A DNA stretch of 64,000 nucleotides. Origin: an uncultured bacterium. GTDB lineage: Bacteria > Actinomycetota > Acidimicrobiia > Spongiisociales > ZC4RG35. The translations under genes were made by a program, and so were the position numbers. Below, in pieces: positions 2,846-52,796 of the stretch. The notes beneath the pieces are model-generated. The model searched no databases and was not told where the DNA came from. It worked only from the letters and a program-made list of their open reading frames with translations. Positions within the stretch are counted from its first letter, which is position 1. Each line of letters begins with the position of its first letter. The stretch lies in contig CAWBVW010000004.1 in assembly GCA_963792365.1 (NCBI GenBank), positions 132,183-196,182 of the forward strand, in the 5' to 3' direction.

Positions 2846-3097
2846 GTAGACCTCGAAGGTGGGCTGGCCCAGACGGTAGTCCCTGTGGGGCCCCCGATCG
2901 CTCTGACGTTCCGTCTCCCCAGCTCGTCCCGGTCGACCCCTCCACATGTCTAGCCCTTCCGTGCGGATCGCCAATGGCCTGGCAAATGACGCAAATCCGT
3001 CGATACGCTTGGCCGCAGGGAGCGGGAGGTTTCGAACGTGGGAAGTGGTGTCGCCGATCGGCATGGCGCCGTCGCGGGCAAGATGGCCGGGACGACG

Positions 3098-6000
3098 ATG
3101 ACAGGGATCCGTAATCCGATCACGACGACGCTCGTCGTGCTCGCCGTGATCGCGCAGCCGCTGCTCCTGCCGGCGCCGGCGATGGCGGTCGACGACAGCG
3201 GCTACGCCACCCGTGGTTACGAACGGCTCGACGGCGACTACGTGCTGATGGCGGTGGAAGAGGCCAAGCAGGGCGGCGCCGATCTCAACGGCGATGGCGA
3301 CGCAGTCGATGACGTCCTCCACGTGTGGAATCGGGTCAACGGCACTGTCCAAAACCTGGGCGTGGCCGTCGAAGCCCAGAACGGCGCATACTCGTACAAC
3401 GGGATCTTCGAGAACTGGAACGTCGCGTTCGAGGACGGCATCGCTGCGTTCCTCGTCACCGAGACCGAACAGGGTGCCACCGACCTCAACGGTGACGGCG
3501 ACACGATCGACAACGTCCTCCACGTGTGGCAGGTCGGTGACGCCGCCCCCACCAACCTCCAGGTGGCACTGTCGGACGCGCTCGCGGATACGACGCCAAT
3601 CACCATCAGCAACGGAACCGTGGTGTTTGGCGTGGAAGAGGTGGCTCAGGGCAACACCGACATCGACGGAGACGGACTGGTGACCGACTCGGTGATCCAT
3701 TCGTGGGATCCCACGAACGGGCTCCAGAGCCTCGGGTACCGATCGCCCTATGGCCAGCTGTACCCGGTGCGGGCAGAAGGAAGCCAGTTCATCTTCCCGA
3801 CCAAAGAGACGAACGGCTTCAGCGACTACAACGGCGACGGCGACAGCCTCGACGAGATCATCTTCATGTGGGATTCGGCCACAGGAGACATCTTCAACTC
3901 CAACCTCTCCATCCAGAACTCGACGGACTACCGCATCGGCGGGGGTCTCGTCTTCATCCCGGCCTACGAAGAAGACTCGGCCACGGACTTCAACAGTGAT
4001 GGCGACTTCTTCGACTTCGTGCCCCACCTGTGGGACCCGTCCGCCGGAAACGCCACCAACTCGGCGATCGGCACCAGCGGCGGCTGGGTCGACTCGCTGG
4101 GGGATGGATCGTTCACCTTCCTCGTCCGCGAGCTCGCCGACGACAACACCGACCTCAACGGCGACGGCGACACGAGCGACTACGTGGTTCACGTCTGGCC
4201 GGCAGGCGACTCCGCTCCCACCAACCTGGGGTTGGCGGCATCCCTGGTCGGCGAACACGCCGCTGGTGACGGGCTCGCCGTGTTCACCGTCGACGAATCG
4301 GCCCAGAACAACACCGACCTCAACGCCGACACCGACACCCTCGACGAGGTGGTCCACGCGTGGAACGTCGGCGAGGGCACTCGCAACCTCGGCGTCACCG
4401 GCATCGCCACCTGGCCTGCGGCCATCACCGGTACCGCTGCTGCCTTCACCGTCAGGGAGACCGAGCAGGGATCAACCGACCTGAACGGAGACGGCGACAC
4501 CGCCGACTGGGTGGTGCACCTGTGGGACGAGTCCACCAATACCCTCGACAATCTCGGGCTGGCCGTCGCAGAGTCCTCGGCACCGATCTTCGCAAGCGAC
4601 GGGACGGTGGCGTTCCTGGTGAGTGAAGCAAACCAGGGCAACGACCTCAACGGCGACGGCTTCACCCTCGGACTCGTCCCCCACCGCATCGACACCGCAG
4701 GGACGGTGACGATCGCCCCCGACGCAGGAGTGGTCACCCCGATGGTTGCGTTCGGGGACACCCTGGCGTACCGCATCCAGGAGAACTTCGTCTTGGCCGA
4801 CCTGAACGGCGACGGCGACCAGGTCGACCTGGTGCTGGTAGCCGACGCCCCCAACCAGGCCCCCATCGCCGAGGCGGGCGGCCCCTATGAGGTAGCGGAA
4901 GGCTCGGGCGTGCAACTCGACGGCTCGGCCTCGTGGGATCCCGACGGCACCCTCGTCTCCTACCAGTGGAGCCCAGCCGACGATCTCGACGACGCCACCA
5001 TCGTCCAGCCGACGTTCACCGCCGTCGACGATGGCGACACCCCATATGCGCTGACGGTCACCGACGACGACGGCGCCATCGCCTCGGATCTCACCACGGT
5101 CACCGTGACCAACGTCGACCCGACGGTCGAGGCCGGCGCCGATCAGACGACGACCGCCGGCGGGGCCGTGTCGCTGGCACCGGCGACGTTCACCGACCCG
5201 GGCACGGCGGACACCCACAATGCAACAATCGACTGGGGCGACGGCACCGTGGACGGCGGAACCGTCGACCAGTCCTCGGGCACGGTATCGGGGTCGCACA
5301 CGTATCTCTCCGACGGCGCGTTCACCGTCACTGTCACTGTCACCGACGACGACGGCGGCGTCGGCACCGACACGATGACGGTCACCGTGGAGCCGGCGAT
5401 CGTCGCAACCGGCACCCTCGTCTTCTCTGGCCAACTCGACCCGGGCGGCGTGGGCCTGTTCCTATACGACATCGACACCGGTGTCGAAACGCGCATCCCC
5501 GGGACCGATGGCGGCAACTATCCCGAGTGGTCGCCCGACGCCACCACCATTGCCTACTCCGCCGGCCGGTCCGTGCAGGTCGTCGACCCGGCAACGGGCG
5601 ACATCACGGTCGTCGTGCCCGACACGGCGGGTCTGTTCCCAACCCGGGTGGCGTGGTCGCCCGACGGCCAGTGGATCGCCTTCGATGCCTCCGACGACAT
5701 CTGGGTGGCACCGTCGGACGGGTCGGCTGCCCCGACGCAGCTGACCTCAGGCTCTTCGGCCGACACCAACCCTGCATGGTCGGCCGACGGCCGCCTCGCC
5801 TTCCGTCGCAACGATGCGCAGCGAGTGTGGGTCGGGACCTTCAACCCGACCACGGTGGCACTCGACGGGCTGGCAGGCCTTCCCAATTCGACCAGCATCT
5901 TCTCCCAGCAGCGCGAGATGGACTGGTCGCCCGACTCGTCGACCATCGTGCTGGGCGCCGCCTTCAACTCGGCGTCCGACGATGAGCTCTTCCTGCTGCC

Positions 6001-9000
6001 CACCGATGGGACGACTACGCCCACCCAGCTCACGACGCTCGCCGGTGACGACACCGCCCCTGCCTTCAGTCCCGACGGCCAGCTCATCGTGTTCATGTCA
6101 GACCGGGCAGGCGGACGCGACCTGTATGTGATGCCCGCTGTCGGCGACGCAGGCGGTGGCACGCTGCTCTACGACCGACCCGACTTCGACGTCTACTCCG
6201 TGGACTGGGCCGACGACGTGGCACCGGTCGACTCCGACGGCGACGGGCTCACGGATGCCGAGGAAGCGGCACTGGGGACCGACCCCAACAACCCCGACAC
6301 CGACGGCGACGGACTCTCCGACGGAGACGAAGTCCTGGTGCACGACACCGACCCGTTGGACGCCGACACCGACGGCGACGGGTTGTCCGACGGAGACGAG
6401 ATCACCATCTACTCGTGCAACCCGCTCGACGCCGACACCGACGCCGATGGTCTGTCCGACGGCGACGAAGTCACCATCCACCTGACCGACCCGGCCAACT
6501 CCGACTCTGACAACGACGGGCTCTCCGACGGCGACGAGATCAACACGTACGGAACCGACCCGCTCAACGGCGACTCCGACAACGACGGGCTCTCCGACGG
6601 CGACGAAGTCCTGGTGCACGGCACGAACCCGCTCAACGGCGACTCCGACAACGACGGGCTCTCCGACGGCGACGAGATCAACACGTACGGAACCGACCCG
6701 CTGACCGGCGACTCCGACAACGACGGACTCTCCGACGGCGAGGAAGTCAACACGTACGGAACCGACCCGCTGACCGGCGACTCCGACAACGACGGATTGT
6801 CCGACGGCGACGAAGTGACCGTCCATGGCACCGACCCACTCGATGCCGACAGCGACGACGACGGCGTCACCGATGGAGCCGAGATCGCGCATGGGTGCAA
6901 CCCGTTGAACCCCGACACCGACGGCGACGGCCTCACCGATGGTGAAGAGGTCAACATCTATGGCACCAATCCGCTCGTCGCAGACACCGACGGCGACGGT
7001 GTGAACGACGGCGACGAGGTGGCGGCAGGCACCGATCCCACCAGCGGCGACACCGACAACGACGGGCTCAGCGACGCCGAAGAGGCGGCGCTGGGCACCG
7101 ACCCGCTGAGCGCGGACTCCGACGGTGACGGCCTCACCGATGGAGAGGAAGTCAACACGCTTCTGACCGATCCGCTAAGTGCAGACAGCGACGGCGACGG
7201 GCTCTCCGACGGCGAAGAAGTCAACACCTACCTCACGGATCCGCTGAACGCGGACACCGACGGCGACGGACTGAGCGACGGGGACGAGGTGCTGCTGCAC
7301 GGCACCGACCCAACCACCGCCGACACCGACGGCGACGGTCTGAACGACGGCGACGAGATCAACACGTATCTGACCGATCCACTGAACGCCGACAGCGACG
7401 GGGACGGGCTGACCGACGGCGACGAGGTCAACACCCACGGAACCGATCCGCTCGTGGTCGACACCGACGGCGACGGACTGTCAGACGGCGACGAAGTCCT
7501 CGTGCACGGAACCGACCCGCTGGCTGCCGACTCCGATGGCGATGGGCTGACCGACGGCGACGAGGTCAACGTCCATCTGACCGACCCACTGAGTTCCGAC
7601 AGCGACGGGGACGGACTCACCGACGGCGAGGAGGTCAACACGTATGTGACCGACCCACTGGCGGCCGACTCAGACGGGGACGGCCTGAGCGACGGCGAGG
7701 AAGTGGCGGCCGGGACCGACCCGAACGACGCCGACTCGGACGGCGACGGTTTGAACGACGGCGACGAGGTCAACACGTATCTGACCGATCCACTGAACGC
7801 CGACAGCGACGGGGACGGGCTCACTGACGGCGACGAGGTCAACGTCCATCTGACCGACCCACTGAGTTTCGACAGCGACGGTGACGGACTCACCGACGGC
7901 GACGAGGTGCTCGTGCACGGCACCGACCCGCTGGTTGCAGACACGGACGGGGACGGGCTCACCGACGGTGACGAAGTACTGGTGCACGGTACCGATCCGA
8001 ACGACGCCGACTCCGACGGTGACGGGCTCACCGACGGCGACGAGGTCAACACCTATAGCACCGACCCGCTGAACCCGGACACCGACGGCGACGGCGCCAA
8101 CGACGGCGACGAGGTGACGGCCGGCACCGACCCGTTGGTCCCGGACCAGGGCGGGGTCGCGTGGGCAGTCGGTTACGACGGCAACGGGCAGCTGGGCGTG
8201 GGCTTCGATCTCCTCGATTCGTCCCCGGACACGGCCCTTGTCTCCGACATCGTCCAGGTCGCGGCCGGTGCCAATCACTCACTGGCAGTCGACAGCACCG
8301 GCACCGTCTGGGCCTGGGGATACAACGGACAAGGCCAGCTCGGCACCGGGTCAACCGAATACCGACAATTCACCCCGACCGAAGTCGAAGGGCTAACCGA
8401 CATCACCCAGATCGCCGCCGGCAGCTATCACTCGCTTGCGGTCGACGCCAACGGCACCGTCTGGGCCTGGGGATACAACTACCAAGGCCAACTCGGATTC
8501 GAGCCAACCTCCTCCTCGTACATCCAGACGACCCCCGTCGAAGTCGGCGGACTCACCGACATCACCCAGGTTTCCGCCGGCAGCTATCACTCGCTTGCGA
8601 TCGACACCAACGGCACCGTCTGGGCCTGGGGATACAACTACCAAGGCCAACTCGGCACCGGGTCAACCGAATACCGACAATCCACCCCGACCGAAGTCGA
8701 CGGGCTCACCGACATCACCCAGATCGCCGCCGGCAGCAACCACTCACTCGCAGTCGACGCCAACGGCACCGTCTGGGCCTGGGGATACAACTACCAAGGC
8801 CAACTCGGATTCGAATCCACCTCATATCCCTACATCCAGACGACCCCCGTCGAAGTCGACGGACTCACCGACATCACCCAGGTTTCCGCCGGCAGCTATC
8901 ACTCGCTTGCGGTCGACGCCAACGGCACCGTCTGGGCCTGGGGATACAACTACCAAGGCCAACTCGGCACCGGGTCAACCGAATACCGACAATCCACCCC

Positions 9001-11786
9001 GGTCGAAGTCGACGGGCTCACCGACATCACCCAGATCGCCGCCGGTGGCAACCACTCACTGGCAGTGGACGTCAACGGCGGCGTCTGGGCCTGGGGATAC
9101 AACTACCAAGGCCAACTCGGATTCGAATCCACCTCATATCCCTACATCCAGACGACCCCCGTCGAAGTCGACGGACTCACCGACATCACCCAGGTTTCCG
9201 CCGGCAGCTATCACTCGCTGGCGGTCGACGCCAACGGCACCGTCTGGGCCTGGGGCGCAAACTGGAGCGGCCAATTGGGCCGAGGGGGCCAACTCCAGCG
9301 GTCGAACCCGGTTCAGCCCACCGGGCTGCCCGACATCGCCCAGGTATCTGCCGGCGGCAGCCACTCGCTGGCCGTCGACACCACCGGCGCCGTCTGGGCC
9401 TGGGGATATGGCTACTACGGCCAACTCGGATTCGAGCCAAGCTCCTCCTCGTACATCCAGTCGACACCGGTCGAAGTCGACGGACTCACCGACATCACCC
9501 AGGTTTCCGCCGGCAGCTATCACTCGCTGGCGGTCGACACCAACGGCACCGTCTGGGCCTGGGGATACAACGGACAAGGCCAACTCGGCATCGGAGTCAA
9601 CCTCCTACCGACAATCCAGTCGACACCGATCGAAGTCGACGGACTCACCGACATCACCCAGATCGCCGCCGGCAGCTACCACTCGCTCGCCGTCGACACC
9701 AACGGCACCGTCTGGGCATGGGGATACGAACTGGTACGGCCAACTCGGATTCGAGCCAACCTCCTCCTCGTACATCCAGTCGACACCGGTCGAAGTCGAC
9801 GGACTCACCGACATCACCCAGATCGCCGCCGGCAGCTATCACTCGCTCGCGGTCGACACCAACGGCACCGTCTGGGCCTGGGGATACAACGGACAAGGTC
9901 AGCTCGGATTCGAGCCAACCTCCTCCTCGTACATCCAGTCGACACCGGTCGAAGTCGACGGACTCACCGACATCACCCAGATCGCCGCCGGCGGCTACCA
10001 CTCGCTCGCCGTCGACACCAACGGCGCCGTCTGGGCATGGGGCGCGAACTGGTACGGCCAACTCGGCCTTCGATCCACGTCGAGCACGACCGAGCCGACC
10101 CCGACCCAGGTGGCCGAACTCACAGATATCGTCAAGATCGCCGCCGGGAATCACCACTCTTTCGCGGTCGACACCAACGGCGCCCTCTGGGCATGGGGCG
10201 CAAACTGGAATGGTCAGCTCGCCGATGGCACCCGGGCGGGTCGAAGCGTCCCGATCCGCATCAACGCTCTGTCGGGGGTGTCGTCGATCTCGGGCGGGTA
10301 CAACCACTCGCTGTTCGTCGGGAACGGGGTGGTGACGCCGATTGCGTTCGACACCGTCTCCCAGACCGTCGCTGCCGGTGGGATCGTCAGTTCCGACGTC
10401 GACGGTGACGGAGCCACCGGGGAGGATCCCGTCGACGTGACGGTGGAGACCCCGGTTGCCGGCGACGTAACGATCACCGAGAGTTCGACGGCGTCGGTGT
10501 CACCATCGGGGTACTCGATGTTCGGCTTCACCGTGGCGATCACTGCCCCCACCGCCTCGGCGTCCGATCCGCTGCGGATCACCTTCGAGATCGATCGCTC
10601 GATCCTGCCTGTGGGATTCACGCTGGATTGGGTGAGCATGTTCCGGAACGGGGCAATCGTCAGAGCCTGCTCAGACGACTCCGGGGCGGCCGATCCCGAT
10701 CCGTGCATCGCGTCGGCAACGTTCGACGCCGACGACGACCTGGTGGTCACCGTGCTCACCTCGCAAGCATCCGACTGGGACGCCGGTGTTCTCGAATCAT
10801 TGCTCCCTGTTCCCCTCACAGTCGACGCCGGTGGACCGCACGTGGCGCTCGAAGGCGATCCGCTCATCCTGCCCGCTGCGGCCATCGGAGGCACCGGAGC
10901 AGTGAGCTTCGAATGGACCTCCGATCCGCTGTCGCTGGATGACCCGAACAGTCCGGCGCCGCTCGTCGACACGGGACTGGCCGACGACGGCGTCTACCTG
11001 GTGACCGTGACGGCCACCGACGAAGCCGGAGCGGTCGCCACCGGTGATACGACCGTCGAGATCCTCAACGCGCCGCCACTGCTCGCCGACGTGGAGGGCC
11101 CAGCCGACCCGGTTGCGCTTGACACCGTGGTGTCGGTGTCAGCCGGATTCGTCGATCCCGGAATGCGCGACACTCACACAGCCACAATCGACTGGGGCGA
11201 CGGCATCATCACGCATGCCACGGTGCTCGAGACCGACGGGTCGGGGACGGCATCCGGCGAGCACGCTTACTCGTCTGCCGGGATCTACACGGTCGCCGTG
11301 ACCGTGGTCGACGACGACGGCGGGGAGGCGAGCACCACCTACGAGTACGTGGTCGTGTACGACCCGGCGGCCGGCTTCGTCACCGGTGCCGGCTGGATCA
11401 ACTCGCCGGCCGGTGCCTACGTCCCAGATCCCGGAGTGGCGGGCAAGGCCACGTTCGGGTTCGTCTCGAAGTACAAGAAGGGCAAGAACGTGCCCGACGG
11501 CCAGACCGAGTTCCGCTTCAAGGCCGCCGGACTCGACTTCCACTCGGCGTCGTACGACTGGCTGGTGGTGACCGGCAACGACTATGCCACCTTCAAGGGC
11601 TCGGGAACCGTCAACGGAGAAGGCGGCTACAAGTTCAGAATCTGGGCCGGCGATGGTGATCCCGACACCTTCCGGATCAAGATCTGGGAGGAGGACGACG
11701 CCGGGAACGAGACGGTGATCTACGACAACGGATTCGATCAGGAAATCGGTGGAGGCAGCGTCGTCATCCACAGCAGCCGCAAATGA
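3098..11786 (+). CDS. Giant secreted multi-repeat protein, ~2,900 aa (signal peptide, DxNxDG repeats, PKD-like, PD40/TolB-like propeller, TSP3-like repeats, RCC1 repeats, C-terminal PKD-like and beta-rich domains); one +1 frameshift at ~9728
   Basis: ORF 3038..10408 reads sensibly to ~9727 and ORF 8436..11786 continues the same RCC1 repeat from 9729. Signal peptide [19 protein letters not shown]|VDD; IDWGDG PKD motifs; WSPDG PD40 motifs. Start may be 3083. Confidence 0.85.
3281..4831 (+). repeat. 10 x D(L/I/Y/F)(N/D)xDxD..D.V.H.W repeats about 53 aa apart (calcium-blade-like)
   Basis: Counted in the translation: [32 protein letters not shown] ... [16 protein letters not shown]. Confidence 0.8.
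6230..8145 (+). repeat. 28 tandem 22-23-aa acidic repeats D(S/T)DxDGL(S/T)DG(D/E)E....TDP (bacterial TSP3-like Ca-binding)
   Basis: Counted in the translation; 66-69-bp DNA periodicity. Confidence 0.9.
8156..10320 (+). repeat. 14 RCC1 repeats (about 51-53 aa), many near-identical at DNA level
   Basis: [23 protein letters not shown]...[15 protein letters not shown] units. Equivalent DNA positions 8422, 8581, 8734 and 8893 give alternating 159/153-bp units. Confidence 0.92.
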
Positions 11787-11816
11787 GAGGGGCAAAGCCT
11801 CGCTGACGCCAACGTG

Positions 11817-12222
11817 ATGCGGGGCTCGCTCCTCTCAATCTCGATCGCCAGGGACTACGGCGCAGCAATGACACCGGTCGCCGAAGCTCGGCTGGTTGCC
11901 GGCCACGGCATCGAGGGCGACCGCTACCAGGGTTCCTCAGGCCGTTCACATGGCGTGCACCAGCGATGTCGGAACCGCCATCGAGTGCGGGCAGGCGATC
12001 GACCCCTTCGAGACGCGCCGCCACCCGGTGGTGTATGTGGAGGCGCTGCCGCGAGGTCGTCGAGGGCAAACACGACACGATCCGCGGAATCTCGTGAAGG
12101 CGCACTTCAGATCTTCCGAGCCGGTGGTACGAGGTGAGCAGTACGACTGCAGCATCAACTGGCGGTTCGAGGATTGGCCCGAGGACGAGAAGTTCCCCAA
12201 ACGTTTGAACAAGGGCAGTTGA
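11817..12222 (+). pseudogene. Degenerate MOSC-domain gene
   Basis: N-terminus MRGSLLSISIARDYGAAMTPVAEARLVAGHGIEGDRY fits MOSC proteins. A second frame continues with GQAIDPFETRRHPVV and NLVKAHFRSSEPVVRG, but the conserved RRN and PC motifs are lost. Confidence 0.55.
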
Positions 12223-12272
12223 AGGCCGTTTGCCGATCCGAGGTCCGAGGATCGGCAGCGTCGTGCGCTCAT

Positions 12273-12311
12273 CAAACGACAGAGGGGGTGCCGACCTGCG
12301 GCACCCCTCTG
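12273..12311 (-). terminator. Intrinsic terminator hairpin
   Basis: Minus strand CAGAGGGGTGCCG-CAGGT-CGGCACCCCCTCTG followed by TCGTTTG; lies downstream of the small peptide gene. Confidence 0.7.
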
Positions 12312-12401
12312 CCTGGTGAGCCCAGGGCGGAGGAGGGAGGAATGGGAGAGAACCGACACCCTGGTCTTTGTTTGTGGGCCCAGTGTCTCCCTTCCACCTC
12401 C
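12312..12401 (-). ncRNA. Candidate structured RNA element (SD copy plus anti-SD tract) in a 3' UTR
   Basis: GGAGGTGGAAGGGAGA (12401-12386) is complementary to TCTCCCATTCCTCCCTCC (~12349-12332). That tract is also enclosed by the stem CCAGGGTG/CGCCCTGG (12364-12357 / 12329-12322). Confidence 0.45.
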
Positions 12402-12439
12402 GTACCGCGTGAGCGCCGGCTGAGCGTTCGCTGTGAACA

Positions 12440-12619
12440 TCACGCATGCCGCGGTGCGGTGCGACGACGAACATCGCCCCGGCGCCAGGATGCAAGCGAG
12501 ATCCGAGGGATCCTGACGAGGCCGCTCCGACGACGCATCGGGCTGGTTCGGCGTGTGGCCTCACGGACACGATCGTTCATGCGAGCGGTCGCCAGGTACT
12601 GATCGGTGATTGGATGCAT
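12440..12619 (-). CDS. Small basic peptide, 59 aa, in an afsS-like position
   Basis: MHPITDQYLATARMNDRVREATRRTSPMRRRSGLVRIPRISLASWRRGDVRRRTAPRHA; RBS GAAGGGAG 7 nt upstream; repeat-containing promoter upstream and terminator downstream. Confidence 0.7.
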   Translation of the reverse strand: MHPITDQYLATARMNDRVREATRRTSPMRRRSGLVRIPRISLASWRRGDVRRRTAPRHA

Positions 12620-12681
12620 GACGGTCTCCCTTCGGATCGCCACCGGCATCTCCGGCGACAGGGACACCATCCGCCACACCG

Positions 12682-12721
12682 AACAAGAAACCGTCCAGAC
12701 CGCGTCAAGAACCTGTCAAAG
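12682..12721 (-). promoter_or_regulatory. Four heptamer direct repeats at 11-bp period (SARP/OmpR-type binding box)
   Basis: + strand AACAAGA (12682), GTCCAGA (12693), GTCAAGA (12704), GTCAAAG (12715). A putative -10 GATGGT lies ~10 nt further along the - strand. Confidence 0.7.
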
Positions 12722-12778
12722 ACCCGAACCCAGGGTTAAGGACCGCCATTTTGGCGGTCTACAGCCCAAAGAAGCTGG

Positions 12779-15700
12779 TCACGACCCCTCGTAGACCGAG
12801 CAATCTTCGGCAATATCGAATCGCTCGCATTCCTCGACGTTGAAGTCACGCTGCCGCCGCGAGCGGGCGAGCGCAGCCAGTTCCTCGGGGTCGAGCGGCA
12901 TTCTGCGGACCACGCCGCCTTCACCCGAGTAATAGAGATATCGGTCGTCAGCGGTGACCGCGGCCACTCCCAAGCCGTTGTAGCGAATCGGAAGCACGAA
13001 CCACTGCTCTCTCGTATCCAGATCCCAGACCCGCAGATTCTCCCCGCTGTGGACCGTGACTCCAAGGTCCTCGCCTGCTGTGGCGTATACCGTCGGCCCC
13101 CCCGCCACAACCGGATTGAAGAGCATCGCATCCTCCATGGATTCACCGTCGCGGACCCTCTGGACATCGATGAAGTAGCCGCCACCGTTCTGGCTGCCGA
13201 ACGCCAGGATCGCGCCGTCGAGGGAGAAGTTGGGAACGAATGGGTATTCGCTTGGGAAGACCATACGACCCAGTTCTCGCCCATCTGGCACCGACTCGAT
13301 CGTCATCCACTCGAGGTCTTGATTCACAGCAACCAATTGCTCGACTCCATCCCCTGCAGGAGAAAACGCTGCCGCAGCAACCCAATGGTCCCACGTCTTG
13401 ACCACATCCTTCGTCACGAGGTTGATCATGCGACCGCCGTCCGGGCATCCGGGGATGTCGCGGCTGGAGATGACGCTCCACTTGCCCTCAGGGTCGATGC
13501 CGGAGGGACGCTCACAATCGGACAGCTCGACGACAGCTTGGCCCGCCATCGTCTCGATGACGCCCGGCTCACCTGGGCCGCCGACGAGATCGCCATTGAG
13601 GGAGGCCTTGGGCGATGACCAGAACTCGATTGGATAGGAAGGGCCTTCTGCAAGGACTCCGCCAGAAGCCAAGTCGAAGAACCGCGGTGTGACGCCGGAA
13701 TCCCCGATCTCCATCACGAGCGCTGTACTTCCTGGCCCCAACAGCAGCTGATCGATGCCACCAGCGGTCGGGAGATTCCCGAGGGCCGGTGATCCGGTCC
13801 CGCTCAGATCCCAGATCAGGGTCTCCTCCGACTGCGCGAAAGACGGCGAGGCGTGAGCCGTCGGGCCAGAAGGCGACATCGAAGACACCACCGGAGTGAC
13901 CTGGAAGATTCACCAGCGAGCCGTCGGAGCCCACCACCGAGACGATGTCGTCATTTCCGTACATCGCCAACAACCGCCCGTCCGGAGAGAACCGCGACGG
14001 GTACCCGCCAGCATGATCGTATGAGACTGACGGTTCCGTTGCGCCGCGATCCCACACCTCCACTCGGTTTTCGGCCTGAACGGTGACGGCCACCCGCCCG
14101 GTAGCCACATCGACTACGAAGGCGGCGCTTGCCGCGATGCTCTCAGGTACGGGCATCTCGCTTGTGATGCGTCCGGTCGCCAAATCGACGTAGTCGAGCC
14201 TCGTCGACTGCCCGAGGTCGTACGCCAGCACGACTTCCCCCGCACGTGTGGAACCGGCCAGGATGGCGTCGTAGTCCGTCGCCGGTGCTCCGGAGCTCTC
14301 GAGATCCCACACGCTGACGCAATCTCCCGTAGGACCGCCCGGTCCCACAGCGAGTCCGTCAGCAAGCACGTGCCGACCGTCAGGAGCGATCTCCACGTAA
14401 AAGGAATCGCACCCACTGGCGAGAGACCGAACCGGCTGGAAAGTCGTGCCATCCAAGATCACGCCGGCGTCATCCGGAAGCTCGTCCTCCGGCGGCGCAA
14501 TGTCGAAGTAGACCACTGCGAACAGGTCGCCATCATCGCTGAAGTCCACGGCGCCGACCGGTCCACCTGCGTCCACCCTTTCGATCGGTTCGAGTCGGGT
14601 CGTGTCGTATACGACCAAGCTGCTCGGGTCATCAGTGGCAACGACTACAAGACGGGACCCGTCGGGGCTCAAGCCGCCCGCCATACCACCATCCTCCAGC
14701 CGCGCGACGAGCCTCGACCCCTGGGTCGTCAACTGAAGAGCCGCCATCACCTCGCCCGGCGTGCGCTCGTTGCCCAGCTGCTCCGACAGTCCAAACGCCT
14801 CCAATGCGAGATTGATGGCGAGATCCGAATCCTCATCGATCGCGACCTCTGCCTTTGTGGCCAAGTCCCGCATCCGCGCGGTGATCGACTCGCTCTTCGG
14901 CCGCCCCTCGCTGCGCCCACGCGAACGAGCCCAGTGCTACGGCCAGCGCCAGGGCACCAGACAGCGCCGTCACCACCCGGCGGCGAGTCCGACGCCGCCT
15001 TGCGATCGTGGCGTCCGTCGCACGTCGGCTCTCGAGGACGAATCGGGCTTGGTTGTCGTCGACAGCACCGGTTCGTGACCGCCATCCCTCGGCCTGTTCC
15101 AGTCGACCACCCGTCAACAGAAGGCCGGGGTCCTCTCCCGATGCGACCCAGTCCTCGGAGGCCATCTCGAGCCGACGCCGGGTCAGCAGATCGTCACGCA
15201 CCTCGTCGACCCACGCCCGGAGACGCTCCCAATGCTGGATCAGTGCCTCATGGGCGACTTCGACCGTTGGATCCCGGGTGGCGGCGTCGCGGTCGAACAC
15301 GAGCAGGCGGTGGCGACCGAAGGCGTCGAGCACGCGCTCGACGGATGCAGTCGGCGCTCCCATGCCCATCAGCTCTGACCTGCGAACGCGACGGCGGGTG
15401 TCCTCGGCCTGCTCCTCGACCGTGACGAGCCGCAGGAACACGTCCCGAGCCGTCGATTGGTCCTCGTCGGAAAGCCCGGCGTAGATGGCGTCGGCACGGC
15501 GGCCGATCGACCCCGACAGCCCGCCCGCCTCGCGGTACGACTCGAGGGTCAGACGATTCCCATCGCGCCGGTCGAACAGCTCCGTCAGCGCGTGCTGCAA
15601 CAAGGGAAGTCCCCCAGCCTCGCCGGCGGCATCGGCCACCAGCGCAGCAACCAGACCTTCCTCGATGACCACCCCCACCCCACCGACCGGCCCGACGATG

Positions 15701-18331
15701 ATCTCAGCCAGCTCGTCACGGCTCGGCGCCGCCACGGCCAGCACCGCAGACTCGACGAGTTCGCCGAACTCGGGGTGACGCAGCGGACGGTCGAAGAAGT
15801 CCGCTCGCAATGTGAGCACCAGCTTCACCCGGGAGGACTCGGATCGGGCCTCGGCGACCAGCGTGTCGAGGAATCGCCGTCGGGTCTCGTCGTCGGCGAC
15901 CTGAGTGAAGACCTCCTCGAACTGATCGACCACCAACAGCAGGTCCGAACCGTCGGGGAGCAGGCGATCCAGCGACGGCACTCAGGCTCTGCCGACCGGA
16001 CCGGACTGCCTCCACCTGCTCGGAGGGTGGTTCCGTCGCCACCCGAGCGAGCGCCCCCTCGAGCTGATCGAACGGTCGGGGACCGGGGATCATGTCCGTG
16101 ATGAGCAGGTCCTGCGCTACGGCTCGCAGACGCGGGATCAACCCGGCACGAACCACCGAGGACTTCCCGATCCCCGACGGTCCCACCAGAACGGTCAGCC
16201 GACGGCCCAGCACCGCAGTCGTGAGGTGATCGACCAGCCCGCCTCGACCGTAGAAGTCCCCCGCGTCGGCCTCCTGGAACGCCGACAGCCCCTTGTAGGG
16301 ATTCCGCACATCGCCCACGGGCGGACGAGGTGCGCCCAGCGCAGCACGGACGTCGTCGAGGAGCTCCTCCACCGTGTCGTGTCGCTGTGTCGGATCGTGC
16401 GCCGTGGCCCGTTCGATCACCGCCGCCAGCGCTCCGGACAGCTCGGGCGCCGGCCGATCGGCGGGGAACGGAACGCCGGAGACCAGTTCGGTCACCAGCA
16501 CCCCCAGCGAATAGATGTCCGAGCTCGGCGAAGGGTCACCGATGACGGCCTCGGGGGCCGTGTAGGCGTCGGCGGGGAACGACACCAAGCCGTGGAGCAT
16601 GCCGACGAGCCCGAGATCGGCGACATAGGGATTGCCGTCTCCGTCCAACAGGACCGACTCGGGACGCAAGCGACCGTGGAACATGTCGGCGCCGTGTCCG
16701 GCCCTTACGGCGCCAGCGACCCGGTCCACCAGATCGAGTATCTCGGTTCGATCGAACTGCCTTGCCTCCATCTCGTCTCGCAGCGTGGAGGCTTGGAGGA
16801 GCCGGTGGACCATGAACGCAGAACCCGGGTCCCGCCAGAAGTCGAGCAGCGGCACCAGGTGCGGGTGGGTGATGGCCGCGATCCGCTGCGCGCCGGCCTC
16901 GAATCGGCGAATGAACCGGGGATCGGACACCAGCTCGGAGCGGAACACCCGCACCACGACCTCGCGCCCGACGGTCGCCTGATACGCCCGATAGAGGGTC
17001 CCCGCGGGACCGTCACCGACGACGTCTCGAAGCTCGTAGCCAGGAACCAGGCCAGTTCGGCCGTCGGGCATGGGTGGAGGAAGACGGTCCGTCAGGAGAG
17101 GGGGATAGTCACGGGGTCGCCCGTCGTCGACGAGCTGGAAGATCTGGGCGGCACCATCGATGCCCCTCACTTCGTGCATCCCCAGGCTCCGCACCGTCCA
17201 ACCTGCCGCCGGGCCCGACGCCAAGGCGCCGTGCGTTTCGGCGGAGACAAGCACTTGGCCGGGATGGGCGACCGCCGCCAACCGCAGCGCCCTGCGGATC
17301 GGCGGGCCGGTCACACCATCATCCGCGACCTCGAGCTCCCCGTGGTCGACCGCTAGTCGCAGCCGCCCCCCGGCGAGCTCGGAGGCAGACCCCACCGCTT
17401 CGGCGACGTCGCGGAACGATCCGTACACGGTGACCCCGCGGATGCCGAGCACGTCCCCACCGTGGCGCGTGACCGCCTGAGCGAACAGCTCGTCACGGGC
17501 AACGAGTGCCGCATCGCGCTCTCGCTGCGACGTGAAACGAATGGTGTCATCGAGCTCCGCCGCGAGCACCGCCCGGCGTTCGATGGCCGCCTTGATCCGA
17601 ACGTCCAGCTTGGGATCCTGGCTCAGAATCGCCAGTTCCAGGTCCCTCAACTCGGGGGAAGGATCGATGCCCAGCTCCTCGGCAAGCATCGTTCTCGTGC
17701 GGCCAAACGCACGCAACGCTTCGCTCTGCCGGCCCGACCGATAGAGAGCCATCATGTGATGTGCCCTAAAGCTCTCCCGCAGTGGGTACTCGGCGGTGAG
17801 CGCCTCCAACTCGCCGACGAGGTCCCGGTGCAGACCGAGAGCGAGATCCGCCTCGACGCGTGCATCGATGGCTGCCAGCCGCATTTCGTCGAGCCGGGTC
17901 ATCTCAGCGGTGAGCAGCGCTCGAGCCTCGACGTCGACATAGGCATGACCCCGCCACAGCGCGAGCGCCTCGCGAAGCGCGGACGCCGCCCGGGCCGGAT
18001 CATCGGCGACCAGTGCAGAGCCGCGCCGGTACAGCTCCTCGAACTCCTTGGCGTCGATCCGGACAGCTGGATCGAGATGATATGAGTCGCCCACCCGCAC
18101 GATGGCGTCGCCCATCTCGCGGCGCAGATTGGAGACGTACGTCGAGATCGTGCGTCGCGCTCCCGGTGCCGGATCATCTCCATAGAGGCCCTCGATGAGC
18201 TGGTCGACGCTGACACCCCTTTCGCCACCGGCCGCCAGCAAGGCAAACACGGTGCGCTGCTTCAGCCCGCCTGGAGACAGCTCCATCCCCTCGCGGTGCA
18301 GAACCGTGGGACCCAGCACCCAGATCTCCAT
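12779..18331 (-). CDS. SARP-family wHTH-BTAD / degenerate class III cyclase-like / pseudokinase / nSTAND NTPase / TM / WD40-like regulator (~1,850 aa); three +1 frameshifts (~15972, ~14893, ~13840)
   Basis: Four consecutive ORF pieces join at the junctions. Motifs: MEIWVLGP, YVSNLRR, ALALWRG, PLRE..MMALYRSGRQSEAL (BTAD); NPYKGLSAFQE, GPSGIGKSS, VVDQFEE, LPLLQHAL, EVAHEAL (nSTAND); TM VVTALSGALALAVALGSFAW; SPDG and GHSGGVFDVAF (WD40). Confidence 0.85.
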
Positions 18332-18414
18332 GGCTGAACCATATGCGATGGTCTCGGCAGGTTGTCGGTCGATCGCCATGGACGGAATGTCTCACGGCGG
18401 CGTCAAACGAATGC

Positions 18415-18450
18415 AAAAAGAAGGGGCCGCCGTCCACGCGGAATCCCCTT
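18415..18450 (-). terminator. Intrinsic terminator after the hydrolase operon
   Basis: Minus strand AAGGGGATTCCGC-GTGGACG-GCGGCCCCTT followed by CTTTTT. Confidence 0.65.
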
Positions 18451-52729: not shown

Positions 52730-52796
52730 GCGGAGCCGGTCGTTCTTTGGGCGGTGGTCCGCCATTATGGCGGACCTTAACCCTGGGTTCGATCTG

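Follow-up and report, generated by a model that had tools for sequence, protein, structure and literature searches.

A putative membrane-spanning SARP-STAND regulator and a neighbouring small gene with 11-bp repeat promoters in an uncultured acidimicrobial genome

Results and Discussion

We analysed a 64,000-nt window in the genome of an uncultured bacterium of the class Acidimicrobiia (contig 4, positions 132183-196182; the assembly, G000, comprises 4.4 Mb in 10 contigs, is 94.9% complete and has a G+C content of ~65%). On its minus strand the window contains a large regulatory gene and, next to it, a small gene, each with direct repeats at 11-bp spacing in front of it. Our favoured reading, to which we assign a probability of about 0.6, is that the large gene encodes a membrane-spanning large Streptomyces antibiotic regulatory protein (SARP) that regulates its own promoter and switches on the neighbouring small gene, in a logic resembling that of AfsR and afsS, and that the frame breaks found in the large gene are assembly indels. 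A first-pass annotation of this DNA had listed a large gene, repeats, a -10 hexamer, a ribosome-binding site, an open reading frame (ORF), a 3' pairing and a hairpin, and we found all of these on the minus strand. Comparison with related genomes largely supports its central idea of a SARP-type circuit, and the feature itself is real and conserved. Coordinates below are window positions on the minus strand unless stated otherwise.

The regulator combines SARP, STAND and propeller-like domains

The regulator gene (12779..18379, stop codon at 12781-12779), delineated from the ORF list and from homologues, conceptually encodes a protein of ~1,860 amino acids. Read through with an X at each of three frame breaks, it has 1,862 positions. 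We found 623 long homologues at E <= 1e-20, of which the best intact ones are 1,824-1,860 amino acids long and 57-66% identical; the source names of the closest ones are Acidimicrobiia or Ilumatobacteraceae proteins from metagenome-assembled genomes (MAGs).

Residues 1-262 (17594..18379) form a SARP domain, with a winged helix-turn-helix followed by a bacterial transcriptional activator domain (BTAD). In Pfam, Trans_reg_C matches residues 40-91 (E 3e-5, on its own below the curated cut-off) and BTAD matches residues 108-252 (E 4e-44). A family profile built from 18 regulator homologues and matched against structures in the PDB aligns with EmbR (2fez, E 5.9e-62, over positions 12-281) and AfsR (8k60, E 1.6e-60, over positions 12-336; 8jke and 8hvr match too, at E ~1e-60), and also with bacterial Ser/Thr kinases. 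By its domains, a winged helix-turn-helix and then BTAD, the regulator belongs to the SARP family.

The following segment, residues 262-445 (17045..17596), is supported as a remote homologue of class III cyclases by eight of its nine PDB matches, the best being 3mr7 (E 2.8e-5), with Rv1264 at E 0.0033. Pfam Guanylate_cyc stays under threshold here (E 0.19), and PF00211 is present in some homologues; in our best explanation the domain is degenerate. It is followed by a protein-kinase-like domain (16310..17038; Pkinase at residues 448-644, E 6.5e-19). Canonical Hanks-type Ser/Thr kinases carry the motifs VAIK, with the catalytic lysine, HRD and DFG. In their place the window protein has VVVRV, HGRLRPES and DLG, as does the consensus of the 18 homologues, and we refer to the domain as a pseudokinase because the catalytic motifs are absent. 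A further SARP-STAND paralogue in the same genome (G000:C4:537205-542470, minus strand) keeps canonical VAVK, HRD and DFG motifs, and no TTGAC-type box was found in either of its flanks.

The central NTPase module (15127..16300) belongs to the nSTAND1 family: PF20703 matches over its full length (E 2.5e-87), and the Walker A motif GPSGIGKSS is invariant in the 18 homologues. The match continues across the frame break at ~15972, with profile positions 1-106 in ORF1 and 115-378 in ORF2. A hydropathy scan predicts a single transmembrane helix (14914..14976), which corresponds to the sole hydrophobic segment of the protein, VVTALSGALALAVALGSFA (19-21 residues, mean Kyte-Doolittle value 2.02). It comes right after the stretch RRRRTRRR, so that positive charges lie N-terminal of the helix, and three paralogues have a comparable hydrophobic segment behind an arginine-rich stretch. 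The C-terminal ~700 residues (12782..14885) are propeller-like and predicted to be extracytoplasmic. Pfam matches to propellers are weak and located in ORF3 (Beta-prop_THOC3, E 8e-8; WD40, E 4e-5), and a Pfam scan of the last 370 residues (ORF4) gave no match. Among structures, the family profile gives strong matches to WD40 proteins (2ymu, E 1e-86). This is also the fastest-evolving piece of the protein, with 55-64% amino acid identity to its orthologue in G003, one of three other genomes of the genus (G002, G003 and G004) that we use for comparison throughout.

The domain order given in the first-pass annotation (winged helix-turn-helix and BTAD, cyclase-like, kinase-like, nSTAND, transmembrane and WD40) is thus reproduced by Pfam, PDB and hydropathy evidence, with the reservation that the WD40 matches in Pfam are weak. 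Its description of a single gene of ~1,850 codons does not hold for the assembled sequence, where the gene lies in four frames (887, 382, 434 and 370 amino acids) and the nSTAND1 module is split over two of them.

A putative four-repeat promoter precedes the small gene

Past the end of the regulator gene we located four 11-nt direct repeats of the TTGAC type (12680..12723), read directly in the sequence and kept in four genomes of the genus, which constitute a putative SARP box. From 12723 to 12680 the units are GTCTTTGACAG, GTTCTTGACGC, GGTCTGGACGG and TTTCTTGTTCG. A -10-like hexamer, GATGGT (12666..12671), is positioned 8 nt past the last unit. With the transcription start predicted at ~12660, the 5' leader would be ~41 nt long (12620..12660) and would include the Shine-Dalgarno (SD) sequence GAAGGGAGAC at 12633..12624. 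According to passages of PMC10936776, the direct repeats of SARP target promoters are spaced at 11 (or 22) bp, and ~8 bp separate the 3' repeat from the -10 element. The repeats at 11-bp spacing and the putative -10 seen earlier were confirmed, and their geometry matches this rule as those passages give it, so that the box appears to conform to a SARP target promoter.

Between G000 and G003, the repeats are identical at 42 of 44 positions (95%) and the leader at 44 of 46 (96%, over 12665..12620). This conservation stands out against a flanking gene whose synonymous sites are almost saturated in the same comparison. The orthologous regulators in G002, G003 and G004 are each accompanied by a four-unit array, a hexamer at the same distance (GATGGT in G003 and G004, GAGGGT in G002; GACGGT is found in promoters of the type seen at a paralogous locus on contig 5, the C5 locus) and a small ORF. 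In G000 and these three genomes, a distance of 0.16-0.8 kb separates box and ORF from the orthologous regulator. In a further genome, G001 (89% complete), neither the orthologous regulator nor the peptide was found with the queries used.

The gap between the regulator gene and the repeats, previously put at ~60 bp, is indeed short (~55 nt from the stop codon). It consists mostly of a dispersed repeat of ~50 nt (12722..12773; a hairpin of GACCGCC and GGCGGTC plus AACCCTGGGTT), identified by its genome-wide matches, which is not specific to the locus. The dispersed repeat, with a consensus of about GTTCTGTGGGCGGTGGTCCGCCATTTTGGCGGACCTTAACCCTGGGTTCG, has at least 25 copies in the genome: 25 core sites in both orientations were found, where 1.7 are expected, and a separate count gave about 26 partial matches besides the copy at this locus. 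Matches also occur in G002, G003 and G005. A second copy in the window is located near 52779 (G000:C4:184961). A depth spike and loose ends in the metagenome contigs are explained by the copy at 12722..12773.

The small gene (12440..12619) encodes 59 amino acids, starting with MHPITDQYLATARMNDRVREA and continuing into a basic, arginine-rich tail. The strong ribosome-binding site and basic ORF noted earlier are borne out by the SD sequence and by the ATG at 12619. Codon evolution and orthologues argue for a translated gene. The 30 differences to G003 are distributed 10/3/17 over codon positions 1/2/3, with 17 of 49 synonymous and 13 of 128 non-synonymous sites changed (ratio of non-synonymous to synonymous rates, dN/dS, 0.23; Fisher p 2.4e-4), and two metagenome contigs covering the ORF show no indels. 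The start codon, SD sequence and N-terminal 21 residues are kept in all four genomes. In G002 (68 amino acids) and G004 (55 amino acids), the first ~27 residues of the orthologue are retained, after which the sequences diverge. AlphaFold2 predicts a helix for residues 3-25 (block pLDDT, the predicted local confidence, 82-88) and little else.

A paralogous peptide, beginning MHPMIKYQMTKERIDDLKREA, is encoded just upstream of the C5 paralogue of the regulator and has counterparts in G003 and G002. Each of the seven genes found for such peptides, which start with MHP, in the four genus genomes has a SARP-STAND gene at a distance of 0.06-2.0 kb. A peptide profile searched against 1.84e9 representative sequences retrieved 20 proteins at E <= 1e-3. 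Eighteen of these are 44-81 amino acids long and start with the pattern MHP.....LA.AR..DL.R.A, the remaining hits being long unrelated proteins. All cluster names of the homologues read 'hypothetical protein', searches of Pfam and NCBIfam returned no family, and the ESM Atlas gave only unnamed small actinobacterial clusters. As no model in Pfam or NCBIfam matched, nothing ties the peptide to AfsS at the level of family models, the two not having been compared directly. Sequence comparison thus marks the peptide as a genuine small protein whose family has no name, and its link to SARPs is a feature of the genus.

In loci found elsewhere, the peptide has other surroundings. Among public MAG and genome records (L123, L126, L118 and L127), the peptide gene of L118 begins right behind the end of a hydrophobic ORF of 39 residues, and that of L127 is preceded by a cysteine-rich ORF. 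In two loci of the wider family the motif heads a long multi-pass membrane protein.

A putative two-repeat promoter precedes the regulator gene

We found a second, shorter box in front of the regulator gene itself. Two direct repeats, TTTTGCATTCG and TTTGACGCCGC (18397..18418), form a putative autoregulatory SARP box that is also present at the G003, G004 and G002 orthologues (L134-L136). They are followed by CGTGA, the -10-like hexamer GACATT (18386..18391), CCGTCC and the ATG at 18379. The start codon thus lies 6 nt past the hexamer, which implies a leaderless mRNA for the regulator. Eight SARP-STAND genes of the genus share this layout of two repeats, hexamer and a start codon 6-8 nt on: the window gene, its C5 and C8 paralogues, the G003 and G004 orthologues, both tandem genes in G002 and another gene in G004. 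It is found, too, in front of the next genes downstream of the C5 and C8 paralogues, whose products are signal-peptide proteins. A Pfam search with cargo proteins of the paralogous loci found no family in three of four and a sub-threshold match to VCPO_2nd in one.

To our regulator and SARP-domain searches in the wider family the unpublished genomes G027 and G053 contributed, and their tallies include both. SARP-domain matches were obtained in 67 of the 101 genomes of the family searched (101 including G053). From the 30 best SARP-domain loci we took 150 nt around the start codon, which gave 29 full windows, and 28 once the G053 locus L144 was excluded. A 9-mer repeated with at least 8/9 identity occurs at period 11 in 8 of the 28 windows, compared with none at periods 6-10, 12-14 and 17; periods 15 and 16 have one and two such windows, respectively. 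At a threshold of 7/9, 17 of the 28 windows score at period 11, compared with 0-7 at other periods. Shuffled windows, in a test that includes G053, averaged 0.4 and never exceeded 3. The repeated words differ between genes and include TTGAGC, TTGAGT, TTTGCA, TCTGGA, TTGTTCAG and TTGGAGCG. The period agrees with the published rule for SARP promoters (PMC10936776), and the pattern suggests that each regulator reads its own promoter. In one of these loci (L141, G108:C422), the word GTCAAG occurs three times at 11-bp spacing on the other strand, immediately ahead of the forward two-repeat box, and may mark a divergent promoter.

The repeats are probably read by a SARP-STAND protein

An alternative is that the repeats are not read by the adjacent regulator at all, being either something common to promoters in general or a site bound by one of the other BTAD proteins or by an unrelated factor, in which case the adjacency would be mere neighbourhood. 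BTAD domains are encoded at at least 10 places in the genome, and the word TTGACA equals the sigma-70 -35 consensus. The hexamer follows TTGACA at 9 nt instead of ~17 nt, and the repeats are therefore no ordinary -35 element. A pattern derived from the boxes, TTGAC[AG]-N9-NANNNT, which the regulator's own box fits, has 57 hits in the genome (8.8 M strand positions), five of which fall in the eight flanks of four SARP-STAND genes. The nominal P value of ~1e-10 for this enrichment is inflated, as the pattern was picked after the flanks had been seen. The related arrangement TTGM-N7-TTGACA is commonest at 11-bp spacing, with 11 occurrences compared with 1-7 at other spacings. Together with the repeated words that vary from gene to gene in other genera, as if each regulator read its own promoter, this leads us to regard the alternative as unlikely.

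Several findings nevertheless weigh against the favoured reading. Tandem Repeats Finder and a sigma-70 promoter scan made no call at 11700-13000, and neither did a terminator scan of the same interval; because general scanners call nothing, the evidence for the four-repeat promoter is comparative. A look-up of RNA runs listed none that contains this DNA. Its units are degenerate, with 7/9 identical positions in the best pair, and the proximal unit departs from the strict pattern given above. A gene stands between regulator and box in G002 (on the same strand) and in G004 (on the opposite strand), as would be expected more readily if another factor read the box. Downstream of 21 homologues from other genera, 400 nt each, we found no excess of 11-bp repeats: 5 of 21 windows score at period 11, among them L023 of G027, an unpublished genome, and 4 of 21 score at period 10. 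A cargo promoter downstream of the regulator is thus supported within the genus only. The peptide, too, loses its SARP partner outside the genus. Its profile gave one plausible match outside the genus among 251 genomes of the order (G177, E 5e-5), with no SARP match in the 3.1-kb locus, and a degenerate DNA pattern that we had checked on the window returned 12 loci, 11 of them plausible, none of which (0/11) has a BTAD or kinase-STAND match within 6.6-8 kb. The linkage of regulator, downstream repeats and peptide is therefore seen in four genomes of the genus and was not found in the loci searched beyond it.

TTGAC-type boxes are moreover common to paralogues in the same genome and to three unlinked loci (C6:338798, C1:1163377 and C1:1209687). 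As the box type is shared among paralogues, the cognate regulator cannot be singled out from it. That the proposed one-component circuit is self-contained is uncertain, as paralogues use the same type. The three unlinked loci each have a two-repeat TTGAC box and a -10-like hexamer with no SARP gene near, and two of the boxes precede signal-peptide proteins without a Pfam family. They may represent remote members of a regulon.

The frame breaks are more readily explained by assembly errors than by gene death

The first-pass annotation had overlooked that the regulator gene is interrupted. A tblastn search with intact paralogues from the same genome recovered one continuous protein with three frame changes, each +1, and a hidden Markov model of codon-position G+C placed frame switches at 15973, 14908 and 13840. 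At the first break (~15972), located from the frames and by tblastn, the window has one extra base, which is lacking in one contig from each of the four metagenome runs. The second, again one extra base, is positioned approximately at 14886..14890 (~14888; model switch at 14908); here the metagenome contigs list no change, and cover is thin over 14684-15097. The third is an extra T in a TTT run (13839..13841). One X3 contig lacks one letter at 13839, and no X1 contig, at a depth of 16.8, has this deletion. The contigs are 90-99% identical to the window and thus come from relatives and not from this strain.

It is conceivable that the gene is a recent pseudogene in this strain, and that the small gene is either not expressed or under the control of paralogous SARP-STAND proteins able to read this type of box; three further SARP-STAND genes with TTGAC-type or similar boxes exist in the genome. 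The clustering of the breaks speaks for this, as does the X1 result at 13839. The codon-position G+C model, applied genome-wide, counted 139 places over 4.05 Mb of coding sequence at which the frame switches on the same strand and no stop codon lies within 90 nt, from which ~0.2 would be expected per 5.6 kb where three are observed. The G003 orthologue, moreover, has a frame break of its own at another place, and the N-terminal part of the C5 paralogue is likewise split over frames. On the other side, all four pieces of the gene have low dN/dS against the G003 orthologue (0.152, 0.103, 0.144 and 0.158, with dS of 0.77-2.6), and any inactivation would therefore have to be very recent. The G004 orthologue has 870 amino acids in a single frame, in an assembly of 540 contigs. 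The 139 switches, a crude count made without a control genome, suggest frequent indel errors in the 10-contig assembly. A giant gene on the plus strand of the window (3038-11786), with TSP3, RCC1, PKD and PD40 repeats, also lies in two frames, and its switch at ~9715 looks like another single-base frame break, consistent with assembly error.

Because the gene is under purifying selection and contigs without the extra base exist at two of the sites, assembly indels are the likelier cause. We consider it rather probable that all three breaks are assembly errors and that the regulator is intact, and think a pseudogene quite unlikely. With so many apparent frameshifts, long genes in this assembly should not be called pseudogenes from sequence alone.

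A predicted 3' structure of the small transcript occurs in two genomes

Downstream of the small ORF, a copy of the SD sequence (12401..12385) is predicted to pair with a CU-rich, anti-SD-like stretch (12351..12328), so that the element spans 12328..12401. It is followed by a GC-rich, terminator-like hairpin (12311..12280) with the tail UCGUUUGAUG, the whole covering 12270..12311. The 181 nt past the ORF stop have a minimum free energy of -89.7 kcal/mol (z -3.85; 0 of 200 shuffles as stable), and the predicted fold pairs GGAGGUGGAAGGGAGAC with UCUCUCCCAUUCCUCCCUCC before forming a hairpin of 13-14 bp. The pairing described earlier is thus recovered in the predicted fold. It is found in G000 and G003 only, and with these two sequences covariation analysis gave no compensatory pair and five one-sided changes. 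The hairpin had been taken for an intrinsic terminator, a view which we could not uphold: the tail is not a U tract, and the terminator scan calls no site. Rfam (E <= 10) returned two sub-threshold matches, both on the plus strand, one scoring 18 bits (cut-off 33) and the other 16 bits (cut-off 50).

Identity to G003 is 91-93% in the 3' region, 83% in the ORF and 67-76% beyond the hairpin. The higher conservation of leader and 3' structure than of the ORF, the stable fold, the strongly different C-terminal halves of the peptides and the lack of a known protein family could mean that the transcript acts as a regulatory RNA only, that is, a CU-rich anti-SD small RNA masked by the SD copy, and that the 59-codon frame is not a functional protein. 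This explanation does not account for the codon-position bias and dN/dS of the ORF, nor for the start codon, SD sequence and N-terminus retained in four genomes, the paralogue and the 18 small proteins with the same N-terminus. In addition, G002 and G004 keep box and ORF without the 3' structure, another gene trailing the peptide there, and neither compensatory pairs nor an Rfam match speak for a structured RNA. We thus judge an RNA without a protein product to be very unlikely. By the same comparison the 3' region probably has a function in G000 and G003 but does not belong to the core of the module, which also detracts from a model in which the structure belongs to the circuit; its action as an anti-SD switch is speculation. 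In both G002 (L097, G002:C8) and G004 (L057, G004:C532), a copy of the dispersed repeat lies downstream of the peptide gene and is followed by a conserved ORF of ~110 amino acids starting with VE(R/H)(I/V)SE, at the position occupied by the structured 3' region in G000 and G003.

Comparison with known regulators and a model for the circuit

To our knowledge, SARPs have been described almost exclusively as cytoplasmic proteins that activate antibiotic clusters in Streptomyces. We compared the window locus to systems that share parts of its architecture. In AfsR/afsS of Streptomyces coelicolor, as here, the regulator starts with a SARP domain and continues with an NTPase of the STAND type and a sensor made of repeats, and the target is a small protein gene with direct repeats at 11-bp spacing across the -35 region of its promoter. 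According to passages of two reports, the afsS promoter combines these repeats with a poor -10 (PMC10936776), and afsS encodes 63 amino acids (PMC6988585). In contrast to AfsR, our regulator has nSTAND1 instead of an NB-ARC/NOD module and a propeller-like region instead of TPRs (no TPR match was found), contains additional cyclase-like and pseudokinase domains and a transmembrane helix, and is about twice as long. It thus falls outside the AfsR-type class of large SARPs (NB-ARC/NOD plus TPR, ~1,000 amino acids). The small gene differs from afsS in having four repeats instead of two in its promoter. We found no secondary-metabolite cluster near the locus, in line with the earlier remark that no biosynthetic cluster is adjacent.

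The SARP-LAL proteins PimR, FilR and SanG, as described in passages of PMC3367932 and PMC10972967, combine a SARP domain with a guanylate-cyclase-homologous region and an ATP-binding module. The window protein appears to resemble them in part, through its residues 262-445 with their class III cyclase matches, and differs from them in its NTPase family and in having a pseudokinase, a transmembrane helix and a propeller-like region. The 2024 SARP review (PMC10972967) distinguishes small, medium, large and SARP-LAL classes; in its text, WD40 and 'transmembrane' occur 0 times, and none of the four classes has a membrane anchor or a propeller. Such an architecture would thus widen the scope of SARPs. 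The tripartite design of predicted nSTAND conflict systems, with an N-terminal output domain, a central NTPase and a variable C-terminal sensor, is outlined in passages of PMC10907252. Our protein shares the PF20703 family and the tripartite logic with nSTAND1 conflict NTPases. Here, the output is a transcription activator and not a peptidase, TIR or other death effector, and the sensor is predicted to lie outside the membrane.

EmbR of Mycobacterium tuberculosis, which consists of a SARP and an FHA domain, has the same SARP fold, as seen from the 2fez match. In EmbR the SARP domain is coupled to Ser/Thr-kinase-type signalling, whereas here a kinase-like domain is fused to it, its catalytic motifs are absent and there is no FHA domain. 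ToxR and CadC place an N-terminal OmpR-type winged helix in the cytoplasm, followed by one transmembrane helix and an outside sensor. Our regulator would have the same topology, with signal and DNA connected within one protein, and differs from them by ~1,100 cytoplasmic residues before the membrane, including a STAND NTPase, and by a BTAD as activation domain.

We found no published description of a protein combining SARP, nSTAND1 and WD40 in titles, abstracts and matched passages. Automated annotations label such proteins 'BTAD domain-containing putative transcriptional regulator' or 'SARP family transcriptional activator/WD40 repeat protein'. The architecture is thus catalogued yet unstudied, and the promoter logic, leaderless autoregulation and peptide link are new observations.

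In the mechanism that we propose, the regulator would be a single-pass protein of ~1,860 residues, with SARP, degenerate cyclase-like, pseudokinase and nSTAND1 domains in the cytoplasm and, beyond the transmembrane helix, a fast-evolving propeller-like region presumably outside the cell. A signal at the outer domain may act on the STAND module by changing its nucleotide state or its oligomeric state, so that SARP domains would bind side by side to the 11-bp direct repeats overlapping the -35 region and recruit RNA polymerase. The steps from signal through NTPase state to SARP binding are modelled on what is known of AfsR, and sensing by the propeller and oligomerisation of the STAND module are suggested by the respective domain families. 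Four repeats could accommodate two dimers and would therefore fit an oligomerising STAND protein. One promoter would be the regulator's own leaderless one, with two repeats, GACATT and the ATG 6 nt on. The other, with four repeats ~100 nt downstream of the regulator gene, would drive a transcript of ~390 nt encoding the 59-residue basic protein with its conserved, predicted N-terminal helix. The 3' end of the transcript would, in this species and its sister, be formed by the conserved SD-copy/anti-SD structure and the hairpin.

If correct, this would be a compact surface-to-gene signalling circuit of an unstudied kind, in which a STAND NTPase family usually placed in conflict systems links an extracellular sensor to transcription. 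The 11-bp boxes offer a direct handle on the regulon of each receptor, and the locus gives a first regulatory context to the MHP peptides, a conserved unnamed small-protein family of Actinomycetota.

Related loci and a possible receptor class

Proteins with the order SARP, cyclase-like, kinase or pseudokinase, nSTAND1, transmembrane helix and propeller occur several times per genome in the family. A broader proposal, which we offer tentatively and hold to be doubtful as a whole, is that they form a class of membrane one-component receptors, each with its own repeat word, leaderless autoregulation and cargo genes, that the C5 locus is a pheromone-receptor loop, and that the output of the window locus is a dual-function RNA. 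The cargo of such receptors would comprise small secreted proteins, secreted enzymes and MHP peptides, each encoded beside its receptor. At the C5 locus, a 72-residue signal-peptide protein and an MHP peptide, encoded immediately in front of the receptor gene, would be expressed together from a four-repeat promoter and close a positive feedback. At the window locus, the RNA would combine the peptide with an anti-SD 3' domain.

The C5 locus (G000:C5:714052-720200, minus strand; L005 and L075) begins with a four-repeat promoter homologous to that of the window, with GACGGT as -10 and the same GTCCCTGTCGC. It continues with a signal-peptide-like ORF of 72 amino acids containing two cysteines, the 56-residue MHP peptide, a two-repeat leaderless promoter and the SARP-STAND gene, and could represent a signal-receptor loop. 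At its end, another two-repeat promoter precedes the gene for a secreted protein of 456 amino acids, the one with the sub-threshold VCPO_2nd match. In G002:C8, promoter, small ORF, peptide and regulator are arranged in the same order as at C5, and G003:C10 keeps the peptide and the box.

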